DNA of 64,000 nt from Flavobacterium sp. (GCF_021151785.1 NZ_JAGKWP010000001.1:337-64336); one strand, 5' to 3'; counted from the first letter of the stretch, positions 1 to 41,434 are shown. Numbers and translations are program-made. The notes: generated by a model not told the origin, from the sequence alone.

Positions 1-17
1 ATAATTAAATTATCTGT

Positions 18-674
18 TTGAAATATTTAAACATCATGCTTGAGAATCGTTTTATAAATGAATTATTATTAAAAATTGGAGCTAATCGTAATATAATAAA
101 AGTTCCTGTATTAATTGATTCCCAAGCAACTATAGACAATTGCTTTCCTAACGTTTTGGAAAAAATAAAAAGAGATGGAGGTTCAATAATTCACGGTTGG
201 ACAATTCATACTTTTCCTTATATATATGAAGCGGAAAGACATACTGTATGGAAATCAGAAAATAATGAATTAATTGACATAACTCCTAAAAAAATACCTT
301 ATAACCAAATCTTATTTGTTCCTGATAACGATAATACTTGGAACTACACAGGCGAATATATAGATAACATTAGAATAAATATAACTACGAATAGTGTTGT
401 TGACGATTACATTATTTTAAATGAAACAATATCCAAGTTATTCCAAACAGGAAAGCGTAATTTGAATGGTGAATTAATGGTTACTAAACAAATTAATAAT
501 GCTATCGAAATTTTGCAAAGATGGAAAAAAGAACATGAAAAATTTATGTATTCAAATGGAACAATTGATTCATTATGTTATTGTTGTAAAAAGAAACCAT
601 ATAAATTATGTATAGGTTTAAAATTAAGGGGTGAAATGCAATTTATTCTTGAAAATATTAGACAAAAAGCATAA
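18..674 (+). CDS. Cassette gene 0: hypothetical protein with C-terminal SEC-C-like Cys cluster (start may be ATG at 36)
   Basis: 218-aa ORF; C-terminal DSLCYCCKKKPYKLC resembles the SEC-C zinc motif; stop is followed by GCTAAC and the repeated module. Confidence 0.75.
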   Translation: MKYLNIMLENRFINELLLKIGANRNIIKVPVLIDSQATIDNCFPNVLEKIKRDGGSIIHGWTIHTFPYIYEAERHTVWKSENNELIDITPKKIPYNQILFVPDNDNTWNYTGEYIDNIRINITTNSVVDDYIILNETISKLFQTGKRNLNGELMVTKQINNAIEILQRWKKEHEKFMYSNGTIDSLCYCCKKKPYKLCIGLKLRGEMQFILENIRQKA

Positions 675-750
675 AATGCCAGCTGCTAACACAGGTAGCT
701 GTTGCACAACTATCATTTTTTAAAAACAAGCCACAAAAAGTATATATTTC

Positions 751-790
751 AACCTCTTTTAAAGCAATTTAAAAGAGGTTTATTTTTTAG
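751..790 (+). terminator. Intrinsic terminator inside module copy 1
   Basis: Perfect 13-bp stem AACCTCTTTTAAA-gcaa-TTTAAAAGAGGTT (751-780) followed by TATTTTTT. Confidence 0.8.
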
Positions 791-973
791 TTGTAATTCA
801 AATGTAAAAATTTAAATAGCTTACCATCGCGTTTTTGAAGGCTGAAAAGGCTTGTTTTATGATTGTTGCAGGCATTTGCTAAAAGACTCTTTGTGGCTTA
901 ATAGCCCCAACAACTCTAATTTATACACAAGTTAATACCAATAGCTCAGAAAACAAAAAAAGCCTCTTGATGA

Positions 974-1003
974 TTTGTAAGAATAAAAAAAATACTATAT
1001 TTG
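974..1003 (+). promoter_or_regulatory. Bacteroidota housekeeping-sigma promoter in module copy 1, pointing into the next cassette
   Basis: TTTG (974-977), 18 nt, TATATTTG (996-1003) matches the -33 TTTG / -7 TAnnTTTG consensus. Confidence 0.7.
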
Positions 1004-1008
1004 ATAAA

Positions 1009-1089
1009 CGCTACTTTATAGCGCATATACATCCAAAATTGGGTAGATTAGCGATATAATGTAGCGCATATAAACAAGTTGTATGTAAT
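1009..1089 (+). other. attI-like recombination site, copy 1
   Basis: TAGCGCATATA direct repeats at 1019 and 1062, a 1-nt-shorter copy at 1049, IR CGCTACTTTATA/TATAATGTAGCG; ends TAAACAA-GTT (GTT 1078-1080). Confidence 0.55.
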
Positions 1090-1130
1090 TGCACCGCAGA
1101 ACCAGAATAATTAACCTTAAAAAAAACAAA

Positions 1131-1766
1131 ATGTATCTTAAAAGTAAAAAAATGACAACTTTATTTAAAGAACAAAGACTTTCTGAATATCTGAACAATA
1201 TTGAAATAACTTTGAAAAATAAAATAGACAGATATAATGATTTCACTTTAATTAATCTCGATGTTGAAAAAGAAAGTGAAAAACTTATCAAAGAGTTACA
1301 ATTATTTGTTCCCAGATTAATTAAAGAGGATACAACAACTTCAATAAATAAGGAAAAAATTGATGGTCGTCAATTACCGTCAGGTACATATTTTACACCA
1401 GGAAAATTAATTGAAATTGAAATAGCTAATTATAACATTCCTACTTCGGGGAATAATGTTTTTTTTAAGTGTGCTCCCAATGGATTTAATGCAATGGAAA
1501 TAAATGTTGAATTAAATATTCACGATATGAATATTAAACTTACTAATTACTCAACGATAACAGGTAACGATGAAGCAATTGAAGGTTTGAAAAATCTATT
1601 GTTGAAATATATAGAGATAATTGAAAAATATCTTTTAACAATAAAAAATGAAGTTGACGAATTTATACCAATACTAAAAGCCAAACTAGTTAAGTATTTA
1701 ACTGAAAAAAAAGAAAAAGCTATTTTGAAAGACGAAACTAAAGATAAATTAAATCCGTTTAAATAA
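1131..1766 (+). CDS. Cassette gene 1: hypothetical protein (start ATG 1131 or 1152)
   Basis: Open frame 1089-1766, bracketed by GTTGTATGT (1078) and ACATACAAC (ends 1781). Confidence 0.75.
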   Translation: MYLKSKKMTTLFKEQRLSEYLNNIEITLKNKIDRYNDFTLINLDVEKESEKLIKELQLFVPRLIKEDTTTSINKEKIDGRQLPSGTYFTPGKLIEIEIANYNIPTSGNNVFFKCAPNGFNAMEINVELNIHDMNIKLTNYSTITGNDEAIEGLKNLLLKYIEIIEKYLLTIKNEVDEFIPILKAKLVKYLTEKKEKAILKDETKDKLNPFK

Positions 1767-1772
1767 GCAACT

Positions 1773-1910
1773 ACATACAACACTTGCTATAAGAGATTTG
1801 GGCATTTGGCTTAATTTAAAAATGGTCTTGTATTTGGGAAGTTTAGGCAAATCCGAAAATAAGGCTTAATTTAGTCCCAAACCTCTTGTAGCAAGGGAAC
1901 GTTACCAGCA
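1773..1910 (+). other. attC-like hairpin recombination site
   Basis: AAC (1779-1781), arm CTTGCTATAAGAGATTTGGG (1783-1802), arm CCCAAACCTCTTGTAGCAAG (1876-1895; 18/20 complementary), GTT (1901-1903). Confidence 0.8.
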
Positions 1911-1931
1911 ATTTTAAATCAAAAATCATCT

Positions 1932-2540
1932 ATGAAACTAAAAATCAGAATTTTATTCGCCTTCGTAATAATGACAAATTTTGTATTTGCTCAAAATGTT
2001 AAAATGACAAACAACTACGGAAGTGAAAATAAAGAAATTCAAGACTTAATAGATTTTGAAAATATTTATATTGAGCAACTAAATTTTGAAAGTGAAAATC
2101 TAAGAGGTAGATATTACCAAATAAATCTCGAAGAATATAAAAATGGAAAACAAATAAAAACTTATACTCTTTTTGACGGTTCAGAAACTGAATATTTTAA
2201 AATTGACTCTGACAAAGAATCACTTAAATTCTTTTTCAAATTGAGCGACGGAAAATTGAAAACATATATCAGAGGAAAAAAATTCGGAAGTAAAAAATCG
2301 TATTTCAAATTAAATAGCGATTCAGATAAATACGCACTTAAAGATTTTTTTGGAAGTAAAAAAGAATTGAATATTGACCTAAAGAAAAAAAATGCTGTAT
2401 TTGCGATAATAACACCGACAATTCACGAGGACGGTTCAGGTTCTTATTGTGAAGTTGCACAATCAGAAATAGCACCGGAAAAATTGGGCGAACACTTTAA
2501 AATTCCACACTATTTTTTAATCACAATAACATTCAAATAA
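1932..2540 (+). CDS. Cassette gene 2: exported hypothetical protein
   Basis: 202 aa; signal peptide ending FVFA-Q; bracketed by GTTACCAGCA (1901-1910) and its exact reverse complement TGCTGGTAAC (2547-2556). Confidence 0.85.
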   Translation: MKLKIRILFAFVIMTNFVFAQNVKMTNNYGSENKEIQDLIDFENIYIEQLNFESENLRGRYYQINLEEYKNGKQIKTYTLFDGSETEYFKIDSDKESLKFFFKLSDGKLKTYIRGKKFGSKKSYFKLNSDSDKYALKDFFGSKKELNIDLKKKNAVFAIITPTIHEDGSGSYCEVAQSEIAPEKLGEHFKIPHYFLITITFK

Positions 2541-2616
2541 AAAAACTGCTGGTAACAGTGGTAACTGTTGCACAACTATCATTTTTTAAAAATAAACTAT
2601 AAAAAGTATAAATTTC

Positions 2617-2656
2617 AACCTCTTTTAAAGTAATTTAAGAGAGGTTTATTTTTTAG
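2617..2656 (+). terminator. Intrinsic terminator inside module copy 2
   Basis: Same stem as 751-780 with one mismatch (2617-2646), then a T-rich tract. Confidence 0.75.
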
Positions 2657-2840
2657 TTGTGGTTTATAATTCTAAATTTTGAATGGCTTACCATCGCGTT
2701 TTTGAAGGCTGAAAAGCCTTGTTTTATGATTGTTGCAGGCATTTGCTAAAAGACTCTTTGTGGCTTAATAGCCCCAACAACTTTGATTTATACACAAGTT
2801 AATACCAATAGCTCAGAAAAACAAAAAGCCCATTTGATGA

Positions 2841-2870
2841 TTTGTAGGAATAAAAAAAATACTATATTTG
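2841..2870 (+). promoter_or_regulatory. Bacteroidota promoter in module copy 2
   Basis: TTTG (2841-2844), 18 nt, TATATTTG (2863-2870). Confidence 0.7.
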
Positions 2871-2875
2871 ATAAA

Positions 2876-2959
2876 CGCTACTTTATAGCGCATATCCACC
2901 CAAAATTGGGTAGATTAGCGATATAATGTAGCGCATATAAACAAGTCAGCTGTAATACT
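2876..2959 (+). other. attI-like recombination site, copy 2 (core GTC instead of GTT)
   Basis: Same repeats as 1009-1080; ends TAAACAA-GTC (2945-2947). Confidence 0.5.
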
Positions 2960-2976
2960 ACAAAAAACGACTTAAA

Positions 2977-3594
2977 ATGAAAACAAAACTTATAATAATA
3001 TCTTTTTTATTTTTAGCAAAACTGAGTGCACAAACTAAATTCAAAGTTGAACAGAAAGAAACTGAAACTTGGAGAAGTGTGTATTTACTTATTGATGAAA
3101 AAAATAATTTAATAAAAGTGTTAGATTCATCAAAATATTACATAACATTCAACTTTGATAATTATGGATATTTTGCAGTATTTGGAAAAAAAGGAAATCC
3201 TGGTTGGACTGCAATTGATGCAAAAGAAAATATATTATTTCAAGTCTACAATACAAGTATTGGTGAACCAAGTCCAGATTATTTAATTGAAAACAAAATT
3301 AGAATAATTGATGACGAAAATAAAATTGGATTTGCAAACGAAAAAGGTCAAATAGTTATAAAACCTCAATTTGAATTTGTGACTTCATTTCATAATGGAA
3401 AAGCAATAATAGGAGAAAAGTGTAAAAAAGTTCCTTGGAAAGAACACGCAAAAGAAGAAGATTGCCAACATTACTCTATTATTTGCGAAAATTTCGGATA
3501 TATAAATGAAAAAGGAGAAATTTTAAAACTTGGAAATTATTCGTTTGAAGAAATAAAGAAAGAAATTGATTGGAAAGCAGACGAAATAGAATAA
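2977..3594 (+). CDS. Cassette gene 3: exported WG-repeat protein
   Basis: Signal peptide ending LSA-Q; WG-type repeats KIGFANEKGQIVIKPQF and FGYINEKGEI; bracketed by GTCAGCTGTAATACT (2945-2959) and AGTACTACAGCTAAC (3597-3611), 13/15 complementary. Confidence 0.85.
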   Translation: MKTKLIIISFLFLAKLSAQTKFKVEQKETETWRSVYLLIDEKNNLIKVLDSSKYYITFNFDNYGYFAVFGKKGNPGWTAIDAKENILFQVYNTSIGEPSPDYLIENKIRIIDDENKIGFANEKGQIVIKPQFEFVTSFHNGKAIIGEKCKKVPWKEHAKEEDCQHYSIICENFGYINEKGEILKLGNYSFEEIKKEIDWKADEIE

Positions 3595-3605
3595 AAAGTA
3601 CTACA

Positions 3606-3715
3606 GCTAACAGCAGTAGCTGTTGCACAACCATCATATTTTAAAAACAAGCCACAAAAAGTATAAATTTCAACCTCTTTTAAAGCAATTTAAAAGAGGT
3701 TTGTTTTTTAGTTGT
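3606..3715 (+). repeat. Truncated module copy 3 (left end and terminator only), closing the array
   Basis: Matches 685-794, including the perfect hairpin at 3672-3701, then diverges. Confidence 0.9.
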
Positions 3716-3798
3716 TTAAGTAATTTGCTTCAAAGTGTTTTAACCAAAACAGTCTGTTTTTTCCCAAAATAAATGCGCTCAATAAGGACGTCTATGTT

Positions 3799-6984: not shown

Positions 6985-7743
6985 ATGGCATCAAAAAGTA
7001 TCAATATTAAATTAAAAGTTTGGCGTCAAAAAAGCGGTCAAACGCAAGGTAAATTAGAAGATTATACCTTAAATAACGTTTCTACTGACAGTTCGTTTTT
7101 AGAAATGATGGACCAATTGAACGAACAATTGGTTAACGAAAGAAAAGAACCCGTAGCCTTTGACCACGATTGTCGTGAAGGTATTTGTGGAATGTGTTCG
7201 ATGTTTATTAACGGTAGAGCACACGGACCAGATACTGGAATTACAACTTGTCAATTACACATGCGTTCTTTCAAAGATGGGGAAACTATTTATGTAGAAC
7301 CATGGAGAAGTAAAGCTTTTCCAGTAATCAAAGACTTAGTTGTTGATAGAAGTTCATTTGATAGAATTCAACAAGCAGGTGGTTTTGTGTCTGTTAATAC
7401 TTCAGGAAATACTATTGACGCCAATGCTATTCCTGTTCCTAAATCAGATGCAGACAAAGCTTTTGAAGCAGCAGCATGTATTGGATGTGGTGCTTGTGTG
7501 GCTACATGTAAAAATGGTTCAGCGATGTTATTTGTTGGAGCAAAAGTTTCTCAGTATGCTTTACTACCTCAAGGTAAAGTGGAGGCAACTCAACGTGTAT
7601 TAAACATGGTACGTCAAATGGATGAAGAAGGTTTCGGAAATTGTACCAATACTGGTGCTTGTGAAGTGGAATGTCCTAAAGGCATCTCTCTTGAGAATAT
7701 TGCTAGAATGAATAGAGAATATTTAAAAGCATCATTAAAATAA
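6985..7743 (+). CDS. sdhB: Succinate dehydrogenase iron-sulfur subunit
   Basis: [16 protein letters not shown] and [12 protein letters not shown] Fe-S motifs. Confidence 0.97.
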
Positions 7744-7766
7744 AACAATCTGTTTTTATATTTTTG

Positions 7767-7798
7767 AAAACGCATATTGAAATCAATATGCGTTTTTT
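7767..7798 (+). terminator. sdhCAB terminator
   Basis: AAAACGCATATTGA / TCAATATGCGTTTT inverted repeat with T tail. Confidence 0.85.
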
Positions 7799-7830
7799 AT
7801 TTATTAAATTTGTTAGTATAAGGATGTAAC

Positions 7831-8598
7831 ATGAAAGTAGCTTTAATACAAACTCATATCAAATGGGAGGATAAGGAGGCAAATTTACAGCACTATGAAC
7901 AATGGTTTACAACAATGGAAGAAGATGTGGATTTGGTTGTTTTTCCAGAAATGTTTACTAGTGGTTTTACTATGTCTCCTCAAAATGTGGCTGAATCAAA
8001 AGCGGGTTTTACATTAAAATGGTTAAAAAGTAAAGCGGCTCTTTTAAATGTAGCTATGACAGGTAGTTTGGTAATCAAGGAGGCAGAAAATTATTATAAC
8101 CGCTTGTTTTTTGTTTTCCCTGATGGTGAAGTTCAATTTTATGATAAGAGGCATTTGTTTACTTTGGCAGGAGAAGAAAAAGTATATACCTCTAACAAAA
8201 AAGAGAAGGTTATAATTCAATACAAGGGTTGGAAAATTTGCCCATTGATATGTTATGATCTTCGTTTTCCCGTTTATAGCCGAAATGTTGAGGATTATGA
8301 TTTGCTTCTTTATGTAGCGAATTGGCCAAAACAAAGAATGCAAGCTTGGGATATTTTGTTAAGAGCAAGGGCTGTTGAAAATTTATCTTATGTTGTTGGT
8401 GTAAACCGTGTAGGTTTTGATGGGAACGGATTAGAATATATTGGACATTCTCAAATAATTGATGAATTAGGCCATTTTGTACTACCCCCTTTTGAGGAAG
8501 AAGCAATTCAATATGCCTTGTTAGATAAAAATACAATGTTAGAAACAAGGACTAAATTAAATTTTTTAAAGGATAAAGATGAATTTTCACTTTTCTAA
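7831..8598 (+). CDS. Nitrilase-family amidohydrolase (omega-amidase/YafV-like)
   Basis: VFPEMF, YDKRHLF and ICYDLRFP give the Glu-Lys-Cys triad. Confidence 0.9.
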   Translation: MKVALIQTHIKWEDKEANLQHYEQWFTTMEEDVDLVVFPEMFTSGFTMSPQNVAESKAGFTLKWLKSKAALLNVAMTGSLVIKEAENYYNRLFFVFPDGEVQFYDKRHLFTLAGEEKVYTSNKKEKVIIQYKGWKICPLICYDLRFPVYSRNVEDYDLLLYVANWPKQRMQAWDILLRARAVENLSYVVGVNRVGFDGNGLEYIGHSQIIDELGHFVLPPFEEEAIQYALLDKNTMLETRTKLNFLKDKDEFSLF

Positions 8599-8651: not shown

Positions 8652-10259
8652 TTATTTATTCAATTCTAACACTTGATCTACATCCCAGTTAGCCCTTACA
8701 TCAATTTTTTCTGAAAAATAAATTAATTCTTCAGGTTGCTTTTTTTGTAAATAGTTACCAGTGTCCCAACTTCTGTTTTTGTTATCATCGTAGTAAATTC
8801 TAATCGTATATAAACTTGGTTTAATTCCTTCAAAGTTAATTTCGGTTTCTTTTTCACTGTAAAAATGATCAACAATAGTATTCTCATTAGCCAGTATTTC
8901 AACTACAAGAGGAAAACGTTTCACATTTTTCAACCGAAGTTTTAAATTACCAAAATCACTAATTTTCGCTGTTTTATAGGTAAAAGCTAAACTATCATTT
9001 TTATTGCCATAAATGTCTTCAATAGCTCCGGGAAGTAATTTTATGTTGTAGCTTTCATTTTCTTCTTTGGTAAAATCAAAAATGATGCTTTCATTATAAA
9101 TATCAGATAAAGTTTCAAAAGGAATTGATATACTATCCCTTTTTTTAAGCTGAATTTTGTCTTTATTGATTTTTGCTACAGGTGTACTCGTTTTTAATTT
9201 GACTAAATCTCTAAAGGTTAAATTTTGATTTTCATTTAATTTAATGGAGAGTGAGTCTGATATTTTCATTTTTTTCAGCTTTACAGAGAACTCTTTTTCA
9301 TAGTTTTCTGCTATAACTTTTAGCTGAAGAGAATCTTTAATGTTTTCAGGTAAAAATATTTGTAAAGTGTCTTTTTTTTCTTCTTTAGAATAATTGGTTA
9401 CAAAAAGAGGGATTTCTTTGTTGTCTTTTTTCCCTACAACTTTTATTTGTCTTTTTTCCCCTTCAAATCCTAAAAATAATTTGTTATTAGATTCTTGAGT
9501 TGGTTTAAAAAATTTTGCTTTTGTTTTTTCTTTAAATAGTTTGAGTAGGTAAGTTGAATCAGTAGGTATTTTTATTTTCTCCTTTCTAAAGGCTATTTTC
9601 TCTGTTTTAGGCTGAAATTTATAGTCGTTGTTTTTGTCTTTTAGGGCAATCAAGTAATATTCACCTGCTTTAATATTTTCAATGGTAAAAGAAGTATTTT
9701 TGTCAAGTGTGTTTGTAACATATCGAGGAACTTCTTTATAAATTGTTGAATCTTTAAATGTGGTAGCATCGTATAATTGAATATTTACATAGTCGTCAGC
9801 TTTGTTTTCAAAGGCATCCATAAATTTACCTGAAACTTTCAAAGAGTCAACAAAACTACCTGTAGAAAATACATATTTAAATTGGTTATAAGGATTTCCT
9901 TCGTTATAGTCTACAATACTTTGCCCAAAATTAAAACTATAAGTGGTATTAGGTTTTAATTCTTCATTCAGTTTAATAGAAATAAATTTGCTGGCACTTC
10001 CTTGAGGAGAAACCGTTGGTTTTTTGTCCATGGGAGGAGAAATAATTAATTGCTTGTTTACATCCTTGATTTTGATGTATTCACTAAAGTCAATTCTAAT
10101 TTCATTTCCATTGAAATTAGTTTCATAATTTTTTGGAACGCTTTTTACTAAAACAGGAGCGATTGTGTCTTTTGGACCGCCTGTGATTGTTCCGCGTTTA
10201 GCACAACTTGTTATAATAAAACCTAGTAATAGAGTTAGAAAAAAGTTTAGATTTTTCAT
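8652..10259 (-). CDS. Lipoprotein with N-terminal Ig-like domain
   Basis: Lipobox IITS-C, then AKRGTITGGPKDTIAP; start at ATG 10259. Confidence 0.85.
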   Translation of the reverse strand: MKNLNFFLTLLLGFIITSCAKRGTITGGPKDTIAPVLVKSVPKNYETNFNGNEIRIDFSEYIKIKDVNKQLIISPPMDKKPTVSPQGSASKFISIKLNEELKPNTTYSFNFGQSIVDYNEGNPYNQFKYVFSTGSFVDSLKVSGKFMDAFENKADDYVNIQLYDATTFKDSTIYKEVPRYVTNTLDKNTSFTIENIKAGEYYLIALKDKNNDYKFQPKTEKIAFRKEKIKIPTDSTYLLKLFKEKTKAKFFKPTQESNNKLFLGFEGEKRQIKVVGKKDNKEIPLFVTNYSKEEKKDTLQIFLPENIKDSLQLKVIAENYEKEFSVKLKKMKISDSLSIKLNENQNLTFRDLVKLKTSTPVAKINKDKIQLKKRDSISIPFETLSDIYNESIIFDFTKEENESYNIKLLPGAIEDIYGNKNDSLAFTYKTAKISDFGNLKLRLKNVKRFPLVVEILANENTIVDHFYSEKETEINFEGIKPSLYTIRIYYDDNKNRSWDTGNYLQKKQPEELIYFSEKIDVRANWDVDQVLELNK

Positions 10260-11959: not shown

Positions 11960-13504
11960 ATGGCAAAACAAGAAGACTTATTTAAGAATGTAGTTTCGCA
12001 TGCAAAAGAGTACGGATTTATTTTTCCGTCAAGCGAAATTTATGATGGTTTGAGCGCAGTTTATGATTATGCTCAAAACGGGGTAGAATTAAAGAAAAAC
12101 ATCCGTGATTACTGGTGGAAATCAATGGTGCAAATGCACGAAAATATTGTTGGTATTGATGCGGCGATATTTATGCATCCTACTACTTGGAAAGCTTCTG
12201 GTCACGTAGATGCATTTAATGACCCATTAATCGATAATAAAGATTCTAAAAAAAGATACCGCGCCGATGTTTTAATTGAGGATTATGCCGAAAAATTAAA
12301 TCAAAAAGCACAAAAAGAAATCGAAAAAGCTAGAGGTCGTTTTGGTGATGCCTTTGATGAAGCACAATTTGTAGCGACTAATGAAAGAGTAAAAGGGTAT
12401 TTAGACCAAAAAAACAGCATTTTGCATCGTATGGCTAAAGGTCTAGAATCAGGTGATTTAGCAGATGTAAAAGCGTTAATTGAAGAATTGGAAATAGCTT
12501 GTCCAGAATCAGGTTCACGTAACTGGACAGAAGTGCGTCAGTTTAACTTAATGTTTGGTACAAAGTTAGGGGCTTCTGCAGATTCTGCTATGGATTTATA
12601 CCTTCGTCCAGAAACGGCACAAGGAATTTTTGTTAATTTCTTGAACGTTCAAAAAACTGGCCGTATGAAGATTCCTTTCGGAATTGCTCAAACAGGTAAA
12701 GCTTTCCGTAATGAAATTGTAGCTCGACAATTTATTTTCCGTATGCGTGAGTTTGAACAAATGGAAATGCAATTCTTTGTGAAGCCAGGTGAGGAAATGA
12801 AATACTACGAGTACTGGAAAGAAACACGTTTAAAATGGCATTTATCTCTTGGATTAGGTAAGGAAAATTACCGTTTTCATGATCATGAGAAATTAGCCCA
12901 TTATGCTAACGCTGCCGCTGATATTGAATTCAATTTCCCTTTCGGTTTTAAAGAACTAGAAGGCATTCATTCACGTACAGATTTTGACTTAAAAGCACAT
13001 GAACAATATTCAGGTAAGAAATTACAATATTTTGATACCGAAGAAAATAGAAATTATGTTCCATATGTAGTTGAAACGTCGGTTGGTTTAGATCGTATGT
13101 TCTTAGCGGTTTTCTCAAAAGCGTTACAAGAAGAAACATTAGAGGATGGTTCAACAAGAACAGTATTACGTTTACCAAGTGTGTTGGCACCTACAAAAGC
13201 AGCAGTCTTGCCTTTAGTTAAAAAAGATGGTTTACCAGAAGTAGCTAAAGAAATTGTGGAGGAATTAAAATGGGATTTCAATGTAGCTTATGACGAAAAA
13301 GATGCTGTAGGCCGTCGTTATCGTCGTCAAGATGCATTAGGAACGCCTTTCTGTATTACCGTTGACCATCAAACTTTAGAAGATAAAACGGTTACTATTC
13401 GTCATAGAGATTCTATGGAGCAAGCACGTGTAGCGATTGCCGATTTAAGAGGTATTATTGCAAATGAAGTGTCTATGCGCAATTGGCTGATGAAAATGAA
13501 GTAA
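11960..13504 (+). CDS. glyQS: Glycine--tRNA ligase (homodimeric type)
   Basis: YLRPETAQG, FRNEI, REFEQME and ETSVGLDR motifs. Confidence 0.96.
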   Translation: MAKQEDLFKNVVSHAKEYGFIFPSSEIYDGLSAVYDYAQNGVELKKNIRDYWWKSMVQMHENIVGIDAAIFMHPTTWKASGHVDAFNDPLIDNKDSKKRYRADVLIEDYAEKLNQKAQKEIEKARGRFGDAFDEAQFVATNERVKGYLDQKNSILHRMAKGLESGDLADVKALIEELEIACPESGSRNWTEVRQFNLMFGTKLGASADSAMDLYLRPETAQGIFVNFLNVQKTGRMKIPFGIAQTGKAFRNEIVARQFIFRMREFEQMEMQFFVKPGEEMKYYEYWKETRLKWHLSLGLGKENYRFHDHEKLAHYANAAADIEFNFPFGFKELEGIHSRTDFDLKAHEQYSGKKLQYFDTEENRNYVPYVVETSVGLDRMFLAVFSKALQEETLEDGSTRTVLRLPSVLAPTKAAVLPLVKKDGLPEVAKEIVEELKWDFNVAYDEKDAVGRRYRRQDALGTPFCITVDHQTLEDKTVTIRHRDSMEQARVAIADLRGIIANEVSMRNWLMKMK

Positions 13505-13521
13505 AAATATAAGTTTAATAG

Positions 13522-13555
13522 AAATCCCGAAACAATCAAGTTTCGGGATTTTTTA
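13522..13555. terminator. Terminator between convergent glyQS and VOC genes
   Basis: AAATCCCGAAAC-aatcaa-GTTTCGGGATTT. Confidence 0.85.
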
Positions 13556-13915
13556 TTGTGCTGTACCAAACTGTAATAAATATCCATTGTTATCATACAA
13601 AGCAAATTCTTTCATGCCCCATTCAAAAACTTCTGGAGGATAACAAATTTTTGCTTTATCTTTAATTTCCTCCCAAAGCTTATCCACCTCAGTTACTTCA
13701 AAGTATAAACTGCCTGAAAAACCAATTTTCTCAATAGATGTATGTTCATTAGGTAGTGCTAGCATGAGGTTGACTTCCTCTTTTGTTAAAGAAGCCCAGC
13801 CCCAATCTACATTTTTTTCATCTAATTTGAATCCTAAAACAGTACAATAAAAAGTAATGCTTTCTTCTAGACTATTAGTCCAAAGAATGGGACGAATTGA
13901 TTTAAATTGTGTCAT
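13553..13915 (-). CDS. VOC/glyoxalase/bleomycin-resistance family protein
   Basis: FYCTVLGF and WGMKEFALYDNNGYLLQFG. Confidence 0.88.
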   Translation of the reverse strand: MTQFKSIRPILWTNSLEESITFYCTVLGFKLDEKNVDWGWASLTKEEVNLMLALPNEHTSIEKIGFSGSLYFEVTEVDKLWEEIKDKAKICYPPEVFEWGMKEFALYDNNGYLLQFGTAQ

Positions 13916-14963
13916 TGTTTTCCTCTAAAGCATTCCAACCTCTTGCCTTTAAACCAATTTTGGTATTGGCCCGAGTAATAAGGTGTGCGCCTTCATTTTC
14001 GGCAACCATATGACCTATTACAGTAAAATTTGGGTTGTGTTTAATTTTATTGTAATCTTCCATTTTAATAGTAAACAATAATTCATAATCTTCTCCACCA
14101 TTTAAAGCAATGGTTGTAATGTCTAAATTGAATTCTTCGCAAACATTGATTAATTGAGGATCTACAGGAATTTTTTCTTCAAATAAATTACATCCCACGT
14201 TTGATTGTTTACATAAATGTAGGATTTCAGAGGATAATCCGTCTGAAATATCAATCATAGCTGTGGGTTTTATTTCTAATTTTTCTAAAATACCTTTTAT
14301 GTCCTTACGTACTTCAGGTTTTAATTGACGTTCAATTAAATAGGTGTAATCGTCTAATATTGGTTGATTGTTTGGATTTACTTGGAATACTTGCTTTTCG
14401 CGTTCTAGTACTTGTAAGCCCATATAAGCTGCTCCTAAATCTCCAGAAACCACCAATAAATCTCCAACATTTGCGCCATTTCTATAAGTTAGGTCTTCTA
14501 ACAGTGCTTCTCCAATAGCCGTAATACTTATGATTAAACCTTTTTGAGAAGAAGTTGTGTCACCTCCTATAACATCTACGTTATAAATTTCAGATGCAAG
14601 TGTAATACCAGCCATTAATTCTTCTAAGGCTTCTAATGGGAAACGATTAGAAACGGCTAAAGAAACCGTAATTTGTGTAGGAATGGCATTCATCGCACAT
14701 ATGTCAGATACATTAGCTACAACCGCTTTATACCCCAAGTGTTTTAAGGGCATATAACTCAAATCAAAGTGAACACCTTCTACCAATAAATCGGTTGAAA
14801 TAACGGCTTTTTTATCTTTAAAATCTAGAACTGCTGCATCATCACCTATGCTTTTTAAAGTGCTTTCTTGGTTAATTTTGAAGTGCTTGGTTAAGTGTTC
14901 TATCAAACCAAATTCGCCTAAAGAAGCAATACTCGTTCTTTTTTGATTTTTATCTTCTAACAT
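13902..14963 (-). CDS. thiL: Thiamine-phosphate kinase
   Basis: GEFGLI, IGDDAAV, DISDGL, GGEDYELLFT. Confidence 0.95.
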   Translation of the reverse strand: MLEDKNQKRTSIASLGEFGLIEHLTKHFKINQESTLKSIGDDAAVLDFKDKKAVISTDLLVEGVHFDLSYMPLKHLGYKAVVANVSDICAMNAIPTQITVSLAVSNRFPLEALEELMAGITLASEIYNVDVIGGDTTSSQKGLIISITAIGEALLEDLTYRNGANVGDLLVVSGDLGAAYMGLQVLEREKQVFQVNPNNQPILDDYTYLIERQLKPEVRKDIKGILEKLEIKPTAMIDISDGLSSEILHLCKQSNVGCNLFEEKIPVDPQLINVCEEFNLDITTIALNGGEDYELLFTIKMEDYNKIKHNPNFTVIGHMVAENEGAHLITRANTKIGLKARGWNALEENNDTI

Positions 14964-18763: not shown

Positions 18764-19385
18764 TCCCAATTATTTTTAATTTATCTGAAGTGGAAATTCC
18801 TCCAGGATTGCATCCCAACTTTCCTTCAGGGATTTCCATTTTTAAATTAGAGTAATAATCAACCCAAACTTGAAAAAAGACTTTGGTTTTAGGAGATTTA
18901 AACGTCATTGGTAATAATTCAAAAAAAGGTTTTCCATAGGCGTTTAAGAAAGCATCATATAAAAGCTCGGAACAATAATATTTTCCATTGTCATACAAGT
19001 AAGCATCATCATATGGCATTCCAATTTGTGTCAAAGAAAAAGAAATTGCTTTTGGAATATATTTTCTATATTTTCTTTTTAGTCGACCAATATACATGGG
19101 TGCTTTAGTATATGTTTGAAAAGTTTGTAGAGGAGTTAGCCGAACAGCATTACCAGAGGCCTCAATCACAAAGGTGCTGTCGTTTTTAATATACACCAAA
19201 CCTATATGGCTAAAATCTTTTCCTTGGTAACCTTCAGTTACTTCATTGATGGCTTCACATAATGGACCGCAATCCATAGATTGAAAAATTAAATCTCCCG
19301 TTTTAAGTGATACATTTTGAGCTTGAGTCAAAGAGCTTATAACAACAATAAAAATAAAGTATTTAAGCCTCCAATTGTTTTTCAA
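18753..19385 (-). CDS. Permuted NlpC/P60 (YiiX/YebB-like) enzyme; start uncertain (TTG 19385)
   Basis: GDLIFQ, FSHIGLV, YYCSEL. Confidence 0.85.
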   Translation of the reverse strand: MKNNWRLKYFIFIVVISSLTQAQNVSLKTGDLIFQSMDCGPLCEAINEVTEGYQGKDFSHIGLVYIKNDSTFVIEASGNAVRLTPLQTFQTYTKAPMYIGRLKRKYRKYIPKAISFSLTQIGMPYDDAYLYDNGKYYCSELLYDAFLNAYGKPFFELLPMTFKSPKTKVFFQVWVDYYSNLKMEIPEGKLGCNPGGISTSDKLKIIGIIK

Positions 19386-20055
19386 ATTCTTCAGGAGTAA
19401 CTCCATTATCCACGTCATATTTTCCAATTTTTGTTCGTCTTAATGCTGTTAGATGTCCGCCAGATTGCAAAGCTTTACCAAAATCATAAGCCAAAGATCG
19501 GATATAAGTTCCTTTGCTACAAACCACTCTAAAGTTTATTTCAGGTAGTGCAATTTTTGTAATTTCAAATTCATGAATACTTACTTTTCTTGCGCTAATT
19601 TCTACTGCTTCTCCAGCTCGGGCATGTTCATATAATCGTTTTCCGTCTTTTTTTATTGCTGAGAAAACAGGGGGGAACTGTTCAATTTCACCTAAAAATT
19701 GTTTTGCAGTTTCTAAAATTAATTGGTCTGTAATGTGTGCTGTTGAGAAGGTAGCGTCGATTTCAGTTTCTAAATCATAGGAAGGTGTGGTAGCCCCTAC
19801 AGTTATGGTACCAGTATATTCCTTTTCCATACCCATTAATTCAGTAATTTTTTTAGTGAATTTACCCGTACAAACGATTAGTAAACCTGTAGCTAGTGGA
19901 TCTAATGTGCCTGCATGCCCAATTTTAAATTTTTTGGGCAAGTTGAACTTTCTTTTTAAACTATATTTGAGTTTGTTTACGGCTTGAAATGAAGACCATG
20001 TTAAAGGTTTGTCAATCAACAAGATTTTTCCGTTTAAAACATCTTCTGCCTTCAT
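19363..20055 (-). CDS. truB: tRNA pseudouridine(55) synthase
   Basis: KIGHAGTLDPLATG, CSKGTYIRSL. Confidence 0.96.
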   Translation of the reverse strand: MKAEDVLNGKILLIDKPLTWSSFQAVNKLKYSLKRKFNLPKKFKIGHAGTLDPLATGLLIVCTGKFTKKITELMGMEKEYTGTITVGATTPSYDLETEIDATFSTAHITDQLILETAKQFLGEIEQFPPVFSAIKKDGKRLYEHARAGEAVEISARKVSIHEFEITKIALPEINFRVVCSKGTYIRSLAYDFGKALQSGGHLTALRRTKIGKYDVDNGVTPEEFEKQLEA

Positions 20056-20840
20056 TAGATAATGGTTAATTTTTGAACAAAGAAATGAATAAGTAATATA
20101 GCAATTCCAGCTATAATTCTATAATAACCAAAGATTCTAAATCCATTTTTTTGCAAGAAACCAATAAACGATTTTATAGCGATTAGAGCAACAATAAAAC
20201 CGACAACATTTCCAATGATTAATAAGTTGATTTGGTCTTGAGAAAGTTCAAATCCAGCTTTATAATAATCATATGATTTTTTTACAGTAGCTCCTAGCAT
20301 AGTAGGAATAGCAAGAAAAAAAGAAAATTCTGCTGCTGTTGTTCGAGATAATTTTTGAGTCATTCCACCAACAATACTTGCGCCACTTCGAGAAACACCA
20401 GGAATCATGGCTAAACATTGGAATAAACCAATTTTAAAAGCGGTTAAATAAGAAATTTTAGTTTCTTCGGAATGGCTAAACCACTCGTCTACTTTTAATA
20501 ACAGTACCCCTCCAACAATTAAAGATACGGCCACAGTTATCGGATTTTCCAATAAACTGTCAATAGCATCGCTAAACAACAAACCAAAAATGACAGCTGG
20601 AATAAAACCAACAAACAATTTGAGATAAAAGTCAATACTTTGAAAAAAGCGTTTAAAATACAATACCACTACAGATAAAATGGTACCTAATTGAATGACT
20701 ATGGTAAAAAGTTTAGTGAAATCATCTTGTGCAATTCCAAAAAAGGAAGAGACAATAATCATATGTCCAGTTGAAGAAACGGGTAAAAATTCCGTGATTC
20801 CCTCAATTATCGCTAGTATAATAGCTTCTAGTGTATTCAT
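20055..20840 (-). CDS. uppP: Undecaprenyl-diphosphate phosphatase
   Basis: [21 protein letters not shown]. Confidence 0.96.
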
Positions 20841-37361: not shown

Positions 37362-38399
37362 TTATTCATTCATTTCACCCCTTAAGGACGTTTCAAATAT
37401 GGTTTTAAATACAGTTGGGGCCACATTTTGTCCTAATAAATACATTAGTTTAGTAATCGCCGCTTCTGTGGTAATATCTTTTCCTGAAATTAAACCTAAT
37501 TCTTTTAATTTAGTACTTGTTTCATAGGTCCCCATCATTACACTTCCACCACTGCATTGAGTTACATTAATAATATGTAAACCTTTTTTTGTAGCGAGTT
37601 CTAATTCTTCAATAAACCAATTATGCATAGGAGCATTTCCAGCACCATAAGTTTCTAGAACGACTCCTTTTAAGTTTGGTATGGCTAATAATGAAGCTAA
37701 AACCGCTCTTGTAATACCAGGGAACAATTTAATAACTAAAACATTAGTGTCAAAATTTTTATTTACAATTAATGTTTTATTTTTTGGAGATGAAAATAAA
37801 GCATCATAGTTTATATTTAAGTGAACACCAGATTCTACTAATTCTGGAAAATTGGGAGATATAAAAGCATTAAAATGTTCAGCACTAATTTTAGTAGTTC
37901 GATTTCCTCTGTATAATTTATATTCAAAATATAAGCAGACTTCTTGTACAACTGGTTTTCCTTTTTGCTGTAAAGCAGCAATTTGAATTGCAGTAATTAA
38001 ATTTTCTTTTGCATCAGTTCTCAAATCTCCAATAGGCAATTGTGATCCTGTAAAAATTACTGGTTTAGTTAAGTTTTCAAGCATAAAACTTAGAGCTGAA
38101 GCACTATATGACATAGTGTCTGATCCATGAAGCACTACAAAACCATCGTAGTTATGGTAATGTTGTTCAATAATATTAGCCATTTGAACCCAATTTTGAA
38201 CTTCCATATTTGAAGAATCTATAGGTTGATCAAAAGAGATAGATTGAATGGTGCAATCCAAGAGCTTTAATTCAGGAATTCCTTTTATTAATTTTTTAAA
38301 GTTAAAAGCTTTCAACGCTCCAGTATCGGCATCTTTAACCATACCAATGGTACCACCCGTGTAAATCAATAAGATGTTCGGTTTGTTAATTGGTTTCAA
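37362..38399 (-). CDS. ansA: Type I L-asparaginase
   Basis: IYTGGTIGM, HGSDTM, TGSQLP. Confidence 0.92.
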   Translation of the reverse strand: MKPINKPNILLIYTGGTIGMVKDADTGALKAFNFKKLIKGIPELKLLDCTIQSISFDQPIDSSNMEVQNWVQMANIIEQHYHNYDGFVVLHGSDTMSYSASALSFMLENLTKPVIFTGSQLPIGDLRTDAKENLITAIQIAALQQKGKPVVQEVCLYFEYKLYRGNRTTKISAEHFNAFISPNFPELVESGVHLNINYDALFSSPKNKTLIVNKNFDTNVLVIKLFPGITRAVLASLLAIPNLKGVVLETYGAGNAPMHNWFIEELELATKKGLHIINVTQCSGGSVMMGTYETSTKLKELGLISGKDITTEAAITKLMYLLGQNVAPTVFKTIFETSLRGEMNE

Positions 38400-39528
38400 T
38401 AGTTTGGTATTTTAATTTATTAATAACGGGATTGGCATACATGGCTAAAAAGCTTTCTTTTTGTTTTATGTCGTCAGCATTGATGCGTAATTCCAATCTT
38501 CGTTCAAAAAGTTGTTTTTCTTTTTCTGTATACTTACAACTATAAGTAGATGTTTGGTGTAATAAATCGTAGGCAATAAAATTGGTCGGCCATAGTTGGT
38601 AAGATTGCAAAATAGAATCATCTATTGCTTGAGCTAAGGCCTGTATTTGTTTATTGTTATTATCGTTTGTTGCTTTTATTTGGTCTATTTCATGATTTAA
38701 AACATCGCCTACATGAATATGGATACGTTTTTTTTGGCCAATAATTCCACTTAAAAGTGTTATAAAATCTTCATTCTTATCTTTTATGTAAATTTCATCA
38801 TTGGCTTCGGCCATTAATTGAGGCATTTTTAAAGCATCTGTAGGGTCATATTCATAGGATATTGATACGGGAACTAATTTAATTTTCTTAAAAAAGTCCA
38901 TTACATCAGCTTCATCATTTGCCATGGCAATCATTTTTAATACGCCTTGGTGGGTAGCATCATTACCATCTTTCGTTCTGCCTTCACGTTGTGCTATCCA
39001 AACAGATCTATTTTCTCTAGATACCAAATGATACATGTATTCAGATAATAATTTAGAACTTTGCAACAATTCTCTAGGAGGTAATCCACGTTGTACTAAA
39101 AAATTACGATTTAATTTTGATAACTTCAATAAAAAATCTTTTTTGACTAAATTATCACCAATTGCCGATGCGGTCATAATTAAATCATGATCAAACAAGC
39201 ATACATTTAAAAGCGATGTGTCTAAAATGATGTCACGATGATTGGAGATGAAGAAATAAGCCGTGTGAGGTTCTAATTTTTCAAAACCTGAAGTGGTTAA
39301 GCCGTCAGATGTTTTTTCTAAAATTTTCTTAATGGCTTGATACGCAAAATTAATTTGGAAATCACGAATTGAATATGTGCGTAATAAATGTTCTTTCCAA
39401 ACAGAATCTTCCACATTCGGATACGCAAAATTCATCATCGCTTTCATCATGGGATGATGTGCCAATTCTCTCAAAGCATGGTTTACTTCGGAGTCATAAT
39501 AAGGACGAATTTTATCGAATTTTGACAT
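38386..39528 (-). CDS. Glycerolipid acyltransferase (PlsC-like)
   Basis: SNHRDIILD, IAQREGRTKDG. Confidence 0.88.
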   Translation of the reverse strand: MSKFDKIRPYYDSEVNHALRELAHHPMMKAMMNFAYPNVEDSVWKEHLLRTYSIRDFQINFAYQAIKKILEKTSDGLTTSGFEKLEPHTAYFFISNHRDIILDTSLLNVCLFDHDLIMTASAIGDNLVKKDFLLKLSKLNRNFLVQRGLPPRELLQSSKLLSEYMYHLVSRENRSVWIAQREGRTKDGNDATHQGVLKMIAMANDEADVMDFFKKIKLVPVSISYEYDPTDALKMPQLMAEANDEIYIKDKNEDFITLLSGIIGQKKRIHIHVGDVLNHEIDQIKATNDNNNKQIQALAQAIDDSILQSYQLWPTNFIAYDLLHQTSTYSCKYTEKEKQLFERRLELRINADDIKQKESFLAMYANPVINKLKYQTIETN

Positions 39529-39586
39529 GGCTAATTTCTATGGTACAAAAAAACAAAAAAAATGGGAATTAAAGTTAAAATTCATC

Positions 39587-40354
39587 TTAAAATCCAAATA
39601 CATTTTTTGAATTATCAGTGGTAATTTGTGCAATTTCTTCAACTGTAGTACCATATATTTGGGCTAATTTTTCAGCAACTAGATATACATAACTACTTTC
39701 GTTTCTTTTACCACGATAGGGCACAGGAGCTAAATAAGGGGCATCTGTTTCTAAAACAATGTGTTCCAGTGGAATTTGTTTTAAGAATTGATCTATTTTC
39801 CCATTTTTAAAAGTAGCTACGCCCCCAATACCTAGTTTTAAACCACAATCAATAGCTTGTAAGGCTTGTTGGTAGTCTCCTGTAAAGCAATGGAAGATTC
39901 CAAAAAGTTTTTTTTCTTTCTCTTGTTCTAATAATTCGAAAATTTCATTAAAAGCGTCTCTACAATGAATATTTATTGGTAATTCATATTTTTTGGCTAA
40001 CTTAATTTGATGTATAAAAGCTTCTTGCTGTTCTTTTAAATAGGTTTTATCCCAATATAAATCTAGTCCAATTTCACCAATAGCGGCAAATTTTCTTTTT
40101 TTTAGTTCATTTTCAACATGTTGTAATTCTTCAAGATAATTCTCTTTTACATAACATGGGTGTAGACCAATCATTAGAAAAACTTGATTAGGATATTCTT
40201 TTTCTAATTCATACATTTTTTGTGTATAACTACTGTCAATTGAAGGAACGAATAACCGAGTTGTATTTTTTTCAAAGGCTCGCTGTATCATTTCTTTTCT
40301 GTCTAAATCAAATTCTTCAGCATATAAATGGCTGTGTGTATCGGTTAGTATCAT
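39587..40354 (-). CDS. TatD-family hydrolase
   Basis: DTHSH, GEIGLD, ETDAPYL; start ATG 40354. Confidence 0.92.
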   Translation of the reverse strand: MILTDTHSHLYAEEFDLDRKEMIQRAFEKNTTRLFVPSIDSSYTQKMYELEKEYPNQVFLMIGLHPCYVKENYLEELQHVENELKKRKFAAIGEIGLDLYWDKTYLKEQQEAFIHQIKLAKKYELPINIHCRDAFNEIFELLEQEKEKKLFGIFHCFTGDYQQALQAIDCGLKLGIGGVATFKNGKIDQFLKQIPLEHIVLETDAPYLAPVPYRGKRNESSYVYLVAEKLAQIYGTTVEEIAQITTDNSKNVFGF

Positions 40355-40453
40355 TTTTAGAGGAAATATATTGTTTTTCAATTTACATTTTTTCTCGTTG
40401 TCCGCAGCATTCGATGATTAGCTCTTATCGAGTCTATTGATTACTTTTGTTTT

Positions 40454-41434
40454 TTATTGCACCATTAAATTGCAACCTCTTATGTCACTATTGTCAAATC
40501 TACCCAAGACTTCAAAAGTTTGGTTTTCATATTTTTTGCCTAAATCTTGTGTCGCTATAAAGGAGCAAGAATTGACATTAGCCAAATCAATAACATTGAT
40601 GCCACCAGTTCTATTATAACCAATAGGGCTTAGTGCGTCTTCCGTATCTCGAATCAAAATATCCATCCATGGGGGACATTCAAAAATACCATTTCCAAGA
40701 GAATAGGCTTGTGATAATAATTCTGTCATACCATATTCAGAATGTATTGCCTTTACTCCAAATCCTTTACAAAGTAGTGCATGCAATTCTTCTCGAATCA
40801 TTTCTTTTCGTTTGCCCTTCATGCCGCCTGTTTCCATAATAAGAGTGTTTTTCAAGCTGAATGAATGCATTTCAATTAAGTCTAATAAAGCATAAGTAAC
40901 TCCTAGTAATAAGACATTTTGCCCAGCTTCATCTAATTCAATGATTTTTTTAATCAATTGTTTGTATTCATTTAAATAAAAACCACTATCAGGGTGTTGA
41001 CTACCTTCTATTAAATCTTGTGCCATGTAGATTAATGAAGAGCCTTCGCGTTCTAAATAGGAAGGTAATAATGCTAATATACAGTAGTCCTCCATGTTGC
41101 CATAAAATAAGGAAAATGCTTGCCTAAAACTCGTTTCATATACTTTTAAGTCGGTAACGTGATGTTTACTTGTGATCATTCCTGTTGTTCCACTACTTGT
41201 AAATATCTTTTCATCTGAGTTTGTATTAGAAACAATACGATTTGATTTAAAAAATTGTATAGGTAAAAAAGGGATGTCTATTATTCGTTTTACGTTTGAC
41301 GGGTTCTTTTTCAATAACGTACAAAACTGACGATACACAGCGTTGTGTTCATATTGGTGTCTAAACACTTTCAAGGTTATTTTTTCAAATTCCTTTTTAG
41401 ACGCTATCGAAAATATATCTGAGGTTGAAATCAA
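40454..41434 (-). CDS. LuxE-like acyl-protein synthetase / acyl transferase
   Basis: FTSSGTTG, ETGGMKG, HSEYGMTELLSQAY, RGCNL. Confidence 0.87.
   Translation of the reverse strand: MISTSDIFSIASKKEFEKITLKVFRHQYEHNAVYRQFCTLLKKNPSNVKRIIDIPFLPIQFFKSNRIVSNTNSDEKIFTSSGTTGMITSKHHVTDLKVYETSFRQAFSLFYGNMEDYCILALLPSYLEREGSSLIYMAQDLIEGSQHPDSGFYLNEYKQLIKKIIELDEAGQNVLLLGVTYALLDLIEMHSFSLKNTLIMETGGMKGKRKEMIREELHALLCKGFGVKAIHSEYGMTELLSQAYSLGNGIFECPPWMDILIRDTEDALSPIGYNRTGGINVIDLANVNSCSFIATQDLGKKYENQTFEVLGRFDNSDIRGCNLMVQ

Follow-up and report, generated by a model that had tools for sequence, protein, structure and literature searches.

Integrons are the classic example of a system that stores and reshuffles genes. 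To our knowledge they are essentially proteobacterial, and in Bacteroidota only the loosely described rAID-1 clusters (recombinase-associated acquired interbacterial defence) are known. An integron attC site is taken here to have R''(...AAC) and R'(GTT...) cores, an L''/L' imperfect hairpin, a length of 57-141 nucleotides (nt) and a conserved structure rather than a conserved sequence. The DNA analyzed here is a 64,000-nt stretch from Flavobacterium sp. (GCF_021151785.1, NZ_JAGKWP010000001.1:337-64336), hereafter the window, in which positions 1-3715 hold an array of small genes directly upstream of sdhC (start 3951), sdhA and sdhB. This array is probably an sdhC-proximal, recombinase-less relative of the clusters of attC sites lacking an integrase (CALINs), with cassettes exchanged at AAC/GTT sites by an Xer/IntI-like recombinase acting in trans.

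Of the known systems, rAID-1 is the closest; it was described in gut Bacteroidales (Ross et al. 2019, bioRxiv 10.1101/471110; PMC12247911) and is defined by a XerD-like recombinase at the 5' end that has at least 44% identity with B. fragilis BF9343_RS08045 (10.1101/471110). Its recombinase is reported as restricted to Bacteroidales, its cargo consists mainly of immunity genes against type VI secretion system (T6SS) effectors and polymorphic toxins, and in 2025 the mechanism of array biogenesis was stated to be undefined and the site structure unknown (PMC12247911). The literature searched held no description of the site grammar set out below or of such arrays in Flavobacteriia or Sphingobacteriia. 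The arrays described here resemble rAID-1, as judged from its published description, in a GC content below that of the host, in strain-variable content, in phylum and in layout, and the repetitive intergenic motifs of rAID-1 have been called 'reminiscent of integrons'. At least two co-directional low-GC genes with repetitive intergenic motifs, the layout that characterizes rAID-1, are found in recombinase-bearing relatives of the window array; the window array is itself co-directional, has a GC content of 27.4% versus 32.2% in its flank and contains repeats, with the recombinase out of view. The differences lie in the hosts (Flavobacteriia and Sphingobacteriia versus Bacteroidales), in the cargo (apparently mixed versus mainly immunity genes) and in the site grammar, which is resolved here.

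All four genes of the window array are unrelated and lie on the + strand (Table 1), as an earlier note on this DNA had claimed. That note had also reported paired words flanking each complete gene, and these are present with a longer pairing than it gave: the word at 1078 (GTTGTATGT...) pairs with the one ending at 1781 (...ACATACAAC) over 13 of 15 positions, the word at 1901 (GTTACCAGCA) with that ending at 2556 (TGCTGGTAAC) over 14 of 15, and the word at 2945 (GTCAGCTGTAATACT) with that ending at 3611 (AGTACTACAGCTAAC) over 13 of 15. Each of the three pairs differs at position 11, where an upstream A stands opposite a downstream C. Among the 55 other genes of the window, the best upstream/downstream inverted repeats are 4-9 nt long and A/T-rich, the lone exception being a poly-A/T run of 11. 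The words obey a simple grammar: the upstream word reads GTT (or GTC)-N7-A-N3-4 and the downstream word N3-4-C-N7-AAC, which gives a stem of 14-15 bp in which a C·A mismatch, at times with an extra A beside it, is invariant at 11 nt from GTT/AAC. This rule holds in the cassettes of six related arrays and in other genera, altogether in more than 28 cassettes from at least five Bacteroidota orders, and about ten further cassettes show a bulged variant. As in integrons, the cassette start is complementary to the cassette's own R''.

The two words covary strictly. In 28 curated cassettes, a set that leans toward good pairs, paired cells amount to 97.4% versus 66.7% after shuffling, and the covariation score is 0.78 versus 0.17, a value reached by 0 of 500 shuffles; the 392 cells contain one G·U pair, and C5 and A32 are invariant. 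The same 13-nt downstream word, CCGAACGGCTAAC, stands behind four different genes in other loci (numbered here with an L: L003:645-657, L125:9650-9662, L126:2105-2117 and, on the - strand, L018 at about 4215). Thus, across strains and species the words are a limited set of popular types and are not unique to a gene. Where an inner gene is reversed (c1 and c2 of L125, c1 of L140 and all of L220), the orientation of the words stays with the array and the polarity of the mismatch is not flipped.

The junction at 1779-1903 is the only simple-hairpin junction of the window array. It consists of AAC, an A, an arm of about 21 nt, a loop of about 70 nt, a second arm of about 21 nt, GGAAC and GTT. In 21 short units of this kind (ten genomes, 21 loci) the distance from AAC to GTT is 112-123 nt in nearly all, and, although the arm sequences are unrelated, each unit folds as a long imperfect hairpin whose internal loops are similarly placed. 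A covariance model built from 19 short units (R1) matches 32 units, 13 of them outside the training set, and within the window only 1779-1903. Paired cells in the 32 units reach 91.7% versus 53.5% after shuffling and the covariation score is 0.87 versus 0.20, with slid controls at or below 0.09; the alignment was fitted to the model, so these figures are somewhat inflated, but the effect is still very large. There are about seven G·U pairs in 470 cells, and this near-absence points to pairing at the level of DNA rather than RNA. The short units fit the architecture of attC (R''/R' AAC/GTT ends, imperfect hairpin, 112-125 nt, covarying stems), whereas the composite units of about 410 nt described below do not. 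A scan against Rfam returned nothing relevant, its weak PyrG-leader matches being the terminators of those composite units.

The scarcity of G·U pairs also bears on the idea that DNA recombination is not involved, and that the words instead pair in mRNA, where they join the 5' to the 3' untranslated region or form a stem for processing, or mark per-gene invertible switches. The words do lie in untranslated regions, between promoter and terminator, and Bacteroidota are rich in invertons. Both versions nevertheless deserve next to no credence and were rejected: G·U pairs are essentially lacking in the 392 and 470 paired cells, the A·C on the sense strand is invariant, and where a gene is reversed, word orientation and mismatch polarity stay as they are. 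Nor is there a strand switch among the joints that the contig data list.

Most genes in these arrays are flanked by longer repeats, which are 84-93% identical to one another. The window holds two of about 410 nt (688-1080 and 2554-2947), 93% identical over 283 nt, and at 3609-3715 a truncated copy. Each combines a T module (about 110 nt), carrying an intrinsic terminator with a 13-bp hairpin and a T run, and a P module (about 285 nt), whose hairpin has the arms GCTACTTTATAGCGC / GCGATATAATGTAGC. P modules align at the nucleotide level with the 3' end of the array recombinase gene of relatives and with its attI-like region; P is therefore a decayed copy of a platform head. The relics within P still read ...TT.IYT.V.T.S..N.KS.(F)DDL followed by a stop codon.

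The distribution of T was followed through a genome collection with a 16-nt motif, a short pattern for which most of the matches listed are due to chance. Among the 120 matches listed, about 38 stand in the full AAC-N4-GTAN-CTGTTGCRCAAC context, all of them in Bacteroidota (Flavobacteriales, Cytophagales, Chitinophagales, Sphingobacteriales, Saprospiraceae and one Bacteroidales). A metagenome scan with a 22-nt pattern gave six short contigs only. In F. psychrophilum, a 12-bp inverted repeat lies at the bounds of T (CTGTTGCACAAC / GTTGTGCAACAAG) and a complete short unit follows, so T looks like a terminator-carrying cassette without an open reading frame (ORF). In metagenome contigs (runs X1, X2, X5 and X18), window position 1080 is joined to 2545-2561 or to 3593-3641; at these joints the end of P (…CAAGTT) meets the start of T with 0-5 nt between, for example GTTGTAACAG…, and such gene-less P|T junctions could be empty platforms or precise gene losses. 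Insertion sequences (IS) of the IS1182/DDE_Tnp_1 type are repeatedly found a few tens of nt past T, within the body of P (L018:44-1639; 524-amino-acid (aa) ORFs in L134, L139 and L119; L103:1-230), which suggests that this stretch is an insertion hot spot.

A motif screen of the loci identified a tyrosine recombinase at the head of a small Pedobacter array (L103), encoded by a 368-aa ORF (348 aa in the protein database). Its stop codon is followed by a promoter-like stretch, a hairpin ending in ...ATATATATAA|GTT plus word, three cassettes that obey the word rule with short units between them, and a T module. The recombinase belongs to a family of at least 8000 homologues of about 347 aa each, widespread in Flavobacterium and Pedobacter. 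Six further platforms were found, in L140, L146, L143, L144, L145 and a Chryseobacterium plasmid (L228). In all seven loci, L103 included, a promoter and an attI-like hairpin (...ATATA.ACAA|GTT plus word) lie just past the stop codon of the recombinase gene, R1 units lie farther along the same strand, and the recombinase gene points the same way as the cassettes. The unit at 1773-1910 had been put forward in the earlier note as the seed for a covariance model; the model indeed leads to recombinase-headed arrays with an attI-like site in each of these seven close-homologue loci. Sites and recombinase are also linked among distant homologues (41-49% identity): 45 of 80 'viral' contig loci contain R1 matches, 122 in all, 121 of them on one strand relative to the recombinase. 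One such locus read closely (L220) obeys the word rule, with genes on the other strand.

Two of the platforms, L140:9098-11044 (Flavobacterium sp. 83) and L146:9274-11044 (F. glaciei), occupy the same chromosomal site, downstream of guaA, a chloride channel gene, DHH and three genes for peptidyl-prolyl isomerases of the FKBP/cyclophilin type; this is a sedentary location of the kind that chromosomal integrons have. Genes for a group II intron reverse transcriptase (RT)/maturase and an IS110-family transposase are present at L144:15173-16630 and 19025-20278 and at L228:15765-17081 and 13299-14300. The RT genes (two arrays) and the IS110-family gene (one array) run in the opposite direction to the cassettes. 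Both kinds of element are known to parasitise or target integron attC sites.

The best NCBIfam model for the recombinase is XerA_Arch / 'integron integrase'. Its scores are 206.6 bits against TIGR02249 (cut-off 265) and 131.5 against PRK15417 (cut-off 435), and both matches fall in two stretches that skip model positions ~180-255, the IntI-specific insert. Its best matches in the Protein Data Bank are XerA, then IntI4 (2a3v, two stretches) and then XerD. These split matches below the cut-offs, without the insert, indicate an enzyme of the Xer/IntI branch that is not IntI.

Similarity to integrons extends from the sites to the whole array. Both systems consist of unrelated, mostly co-oriented small genes in low-GC, strain-variable arrays, with chromosomal versions at a fixed locus and plasmid versions; in both, a cassette starts with (G)TT... 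and ends with a complementary ...AAC, which is followed by an imperfect hairpin of conserved length (about 120 nt) with hypervariable, covarying stems; both have an Xer/IntI-branch recombinase at the head, followed by an attI-like site and a promoter; and both harbor group II introns and IS110-family elements. The differences are that the recombinase here has no IntI insert and shares the orientation of the cassettes (a distant subgroup has another arrangement), that the R-box stem has 14-15 bp with an invariant C·A versus 7 bp in integrons, that a 4-6-nt spacer ending in AAC directly precedes GTT, and that many junctions are T+P composites, which bring together a terminator, a relic of the recombinase gene, a promoter and an attI-like site and so supply most cassettes with a promoter of their own. 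In its workings the system resembles an integron, but two defining features of an integron in the IntegronFinder sense are not seen, namely an IntI-specific domain near patch III and an intI gene divergent from the array with attI and Pc between. Absence of the insert and co-orientation of the recombinase make the system integron-like and not a canonical integron.

An ordinary integron or CALIN, with attC sites served by a true IntI elsewhere in the genome, is accordingly hardly credible. Its appeal lies in the AAC/GTT ends, the imperfect hairpin of 112-125 nt and the own-cassette complementarity, all of which match attC logic, and integrons and CALINs have been reported in Bacteroidota (PMC8618304). 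It is countered by the sub-cut-off scores and co-orientation of the linked recombinase, by the empty Rfam result and by the T and P modules, which have no integron counterpart. R1 also finds no match in the CALIN of Polaribacter phage P12002L, a site of which recombines with IntI1 (PMC9892861), so that this phage provides no functional bridge. A CALIN is defined by at least two attC sites within 4 kb and no integrase; the window has one canonical-looking unit, the other junctions being T+P, and no integrase in view.

Single-gene modules also occur in another Xer-dependent system, the pdif modules of Acinetobacter plasmids, in which XerC/XerD sites flank discrete gene modules as 28-bp dif-like duplexes of 11-6-11 layout. 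The two systems share single-gene modules between inverse short sites for an Xer-type recombinase, with no dedicated recombinase required in cis. In contrast to the arrays described here, pdif modules have no long hairpin unit and no AAC/GTT own-cassette complementarity, and the sites here do not suit the 11-6-11 layout. A dif/pdif-like 11-6-11 reading of the end of P and the start of T was rejected on inspection, because the arms are not inverted copies.

Cassettes turn over between near-identical strains. L124, L125 and L126 are 99.7-100% identical to the window in sdhC/sdhA but differ in cassettes and in their order. The cassette named WG after its WG_beta_rep gene adjoins sdhC in the window and lies 8 kb away in L124, with other cassettes between. 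Conversely, L001 and L003 have a WG cassette identical at 667 of 667 positions, though their sdhC/sdhA are only about 96.6-97.0% identical to those of the window and the flanks differ by 3.2%. A six-way alignment shows a near-perfect block, embedded in P and T mosaics, which begins no more than 22 nt from GTC and reaches the stop codon or passes on through T. Whether the P-WG-T block is there or not, its boundary at TAGTTGT| is exact to the base. The repeat units have 10-100 times the depth of single-copy WG or sdhC in metagenome contigs. The earlier note had named three findings that would speak against its proposal: genes fixed and syntenic across relatives, no AAC-hairpin-GTT units elsewhere, and no circles or rearrangements. 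Instead, cassettes differ beside near-identical sdhC/sdhA, such units flank single genes in many genomes, and WG has changed place and is shared intact between strains with diverged flanks. Its view of individually mobile cassettes in an integron-like system with non-standard sites gains support from this turnover, from the units elsewhere and from the recombinase-headed arrays. In L124, the sdhC upstream region and first codons are duplicated (7555-7912 and 9882-10050) with about 2 kb and four small genes between; the inner sdhC copy opens a 169-aa ORF, and the arrangement suggests that DNA was inserted into sdhC at its 5' end, duplicating about 170 bp.

Turnover of this kind could also arise in a relic array, in which the sites are fossils and cassettes are gained and lost only through RecA-dependent recombination, for instance after natural transformation, with the T (about 110 nt) and P (about 285 nt) repeats serving as portable homology arms and no site-specific step. 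This explanation is unlikely, though it is a serious contender. Long repeats of 84-93% identity stand beside most genes, single-nucleotide polymorphisms form mosaic patterns with breakpoints inside P or T rather than at GTT, L125 and L126 share a microhomology junction, no recombinase adjoins the array in L125 or in the window, and the recombinase copies within P are dead relics. For chromosomal integrons, cassette shuffling driven by transformation is documented (PMC12614218). It is clear that the long repeats also recombine homologously and so reshape the array. As the sole process, homologous recombination is opposed by the strict Watson-Crick covariation and invariant C·A mismatch kept in the words and hairpins of the window array, which argue for continuing selection on the sites. 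Moreover, cassette 1 is bounded by a short unit without a long homology arm, the insertion or absence of P-WG-T is base-exact, and intact platforms bearing these sites are known from congeners and from a plasmid.

A different enzyme is proposed if cassettes are moved by an IS91-type rolling-circle (HUH Y2) transposase, as non-autonomous units with ori/ter hairpins cut beside CAAG/GAAC. At L085:100-2450 in F. alvei, an IS91-family element encoding a 323-aa IntI-subgroup tyrosine recombinase and a Y2 transposase (NF033538, E 4e-131) sits exactly between a cassette word with its AAC and a T module, with GCTGTT/AACAGC repeated at both junctions. The N-terminus of the same recombinase and the same end (…GCTACCGAAGGTTTAGTTC|AAC) abut the first T of an sdhC array at L001:1-135; this fragment had been considered as the array integrase and was rejected as part of an IS91-family element. 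Junctions often read ...CAAG|TT and ...GAAC|GTT, and CAAG and GAAC are IS91 target tetranucleotides. Recombinases associated with IS91 fall in the IntI subgroup (bioRxiv 10.1101/542381). However, the element is absent from most arrays, including all seven platform loci, and the window array has no Y2 transposase; the element's placement looks like that of an IS targeting a hairpin site. Several units end in AAAC, AACC, TGAC or TGAG, the paired end-words of the cassettes with their fixed mismatch are not a known IS91 feature, and cassettes have hairpin units instead of ori/ter ends. Movement by such a transposase is therefore very unlikely.

Several observations weigh against exchange of the window cassettes at AAC/GTT sites by a recombinase in trans. 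No recombinase of the array family is encoded in the 64-kb window, and the start of the L125 array likewise has none beside it, its neighbours being a gene with a PKD domain and non-coding DNA in which four CCCTAGGG palindromes lie. No L''/L' pairing is found beside the R boxes of the long T+P unit. The top and bottom strands of the short units fold equally well, the bottom strand being the more stable in 12 of 21, and the only hint of a strand preference is that the invariant C·A turns into G·T on the bottom strand. A few cassettes have no recognisable downstream word, and the window, L124 and L103 have different genes between the word pair of GTTACCAGCA. Breakpoints do not always fall at GTT, and the comparative breakpoints do not pin the crossover to G|TT: the shared TPM block stops about 48 nt before the next GTT, a promoter segment moves with the downstream gene for one cassette, and in L125/L126 the downstream word behind the WG gene comes from a different cassette, with the microhomology GAATAAAAA at the joint. 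The data, which consist of assembled contigs only, showed neither circles nor excision junctions. As for the palindromes of L125, they are centred on CCCTAGGG (…AATTCCCCTAGGGGAATT…), lie at 2440-2560 just upstream of the array's first, P-only unit, and could form a protein-binding region at the array head.

Exchange at AAC/GTT sites nevertheless remains the probable explanation, and its steps may be envisaged as follows. A cassette would comprise one or a few low-GC genes bounded by complementary end-words. In the circularised cassette, the two words would pair across the junction unit into an 'R-box' stem of 14-15 bp with its C·A mismatch, adjoining the unit's own imperfect hairpin, which gives the same geometry as in integron attC sites. 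The most likely enzyme is the Xer/IntI-like tyrosine recombinase of 347 aa found at the head of intact arrays in relatives; it would presumably use a folded single strand as substrate, catalyze exchange at or near AAC/G|TT and excise cassettes as circles. Since it would act in trans on the window array, the locus would be CALIN-like. P may re-supply a promoter and an attI-like insertion site (...ACAA|GTT) inside the array, and T+P modules may provide most cassettes with their own terminator and promoter.

Table 1. Features of the cassette array upstream of sdhC (window coordinates)
Feature	Position	Strand	Details
Cassette 0	36-690	+	5' incomplete, upstream word off the window; downstream word ...GCCAGCTGCTAAC ends at 690
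Cassette 0 gene	36-674	+	212 aa; no family; Cys-rich SEC-C-like motif at C-terminus
T module, copy 1	688-794	+	AAC-N4-GTAG-CTGTTGCACAAC, A/T-rich stretch, terminator hairpin 751-780 with T run, end TAGTTGT
P module, copy 1	795-1080	+	linker, recombinase relic, promoter, attI-like hairpin, end GCATATAAACAA|GTT (GTT 1078-1080)
Recombinase-gene relic in P copy 1	~910-980	+	last ~45 codons; stop TAA 978-980
Promoter in P copy 1	974-1003	+	Bacteroidetes-type TTTG-N18-TAtaTTTG
attI-like hairpin in P copy 1	arms 1010-1024 / 1051-1065	+	end GCATATAAACAA|GTT
Cassette 1	1078-1781	+	upstream word GTTGTATGTAATTGC (1078-1092); downstream word GCAACTACATACAAC (1767-1781)
Cassette 1 gene	1131-1766	+	211 aa; PADLOC candidate defence family PDC-S54, E 2.6e-20
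Short attC-like unit	1779-1903	+	best R1 match, 120.7 bits
Cassette 2	1901-2556	+	upstream word GTTACCAGCAATTTT; downstream word AAAACTGCTGGTAAC (2542-2556)
Cassette 2 gene	1932-2540	+	202 aa; signal peptide; no family
T module, copy 2	2554-2660	+	terminator hairpin 2617-2646
P module, copy 2	2661-2947	+	relic ~2777-2847, promoter-like 2841-2870, attI-like hairpin, end ...ATAAACAA|GTC (2945-2947)
Cassette 3 (WG)	2945-3611	+	upstream word GTCAGCTGTAATACT; downstream word AGTACTACAGCTAAC (3597-3611)
WG cassette gene	2977-3594	+	205 aa; signal peptide; WG_beta_rep
T module, copy 3	3609-3715	+	terminator hairpin 3672-3701; array end

The array ends with the third copy of T, and DNA unique to the region upstream of sdhC begins at 3716. 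Two of its four proteins have no match in Pfam or PADLOC, and an exact look-up found no identical copy on record for genes 0, 1 and 2. Families encoded in the window and related arrays include WG_beta_rep, PDC-S54, TPM_phosphatase, DUF1801, HEAT, Zeta_toxin, DUF4365, M48 and BRCT. The cargo over the arrays is mixed, with candidate phage-defence genes, a PARIS-like pair, mer genes, a beta-lactamase-family gene and secreted proteins, and no immunity family was detected in it with Pfam or PADLOC. A single cassette behind the recombinase of L145 (11175-13339) encodes an AAA_15 ATPase and a DUF4435 protein, which we take to be the gene pair of the PARIS anti-phage system. The last Pedobacter cassette (L103:330-1180, - strand) encodes a MerT/MerP-like heavy-metal transport fusion and a small Cys-rich protein. 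Elsewhere in the window, genes for a LuxE-type acyl-protein synthetase and an acyltransferase are near neighbours separated by a TatD-type DNase gene at 38386-41434 (- strand), and a lycopene cyclase gene lies at 54592-55737; the LuxE, acyltransferase and lycopene cyclase genes are pigment or lipid genes with no relation to the array.

The arrays may, tentatively, be members of a phylum-wide Bacteroidota analogue of the integron, with chromosomal, plasmid and phage-like versions, a recombinase that is sister to IntI without its insert, a site grammar of its own built on a hairpin of about 118 nt, and T+P accessory modules; this broader proposal is possible but on balance doubtful. If it holds, rAID-1 would be the gut-Bacteroidales branch of the system, and a second, independent model would be available for single-strand hairpin recombination and the making of cassettes. 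Cassette boundaries, an attC-like unit and its working covariance model, an attI-like site, a recombinase family and natural evidence of turnover are now available from this locus and related ones, and make the mechanism of these arrays directly testable. Current integron finders would miss such arrays because they have no IntI. With these parts, cassette arrays could be annotated across Bacteroidota, where their cargo includes candidate genes for defence against phages and against other bacteria.

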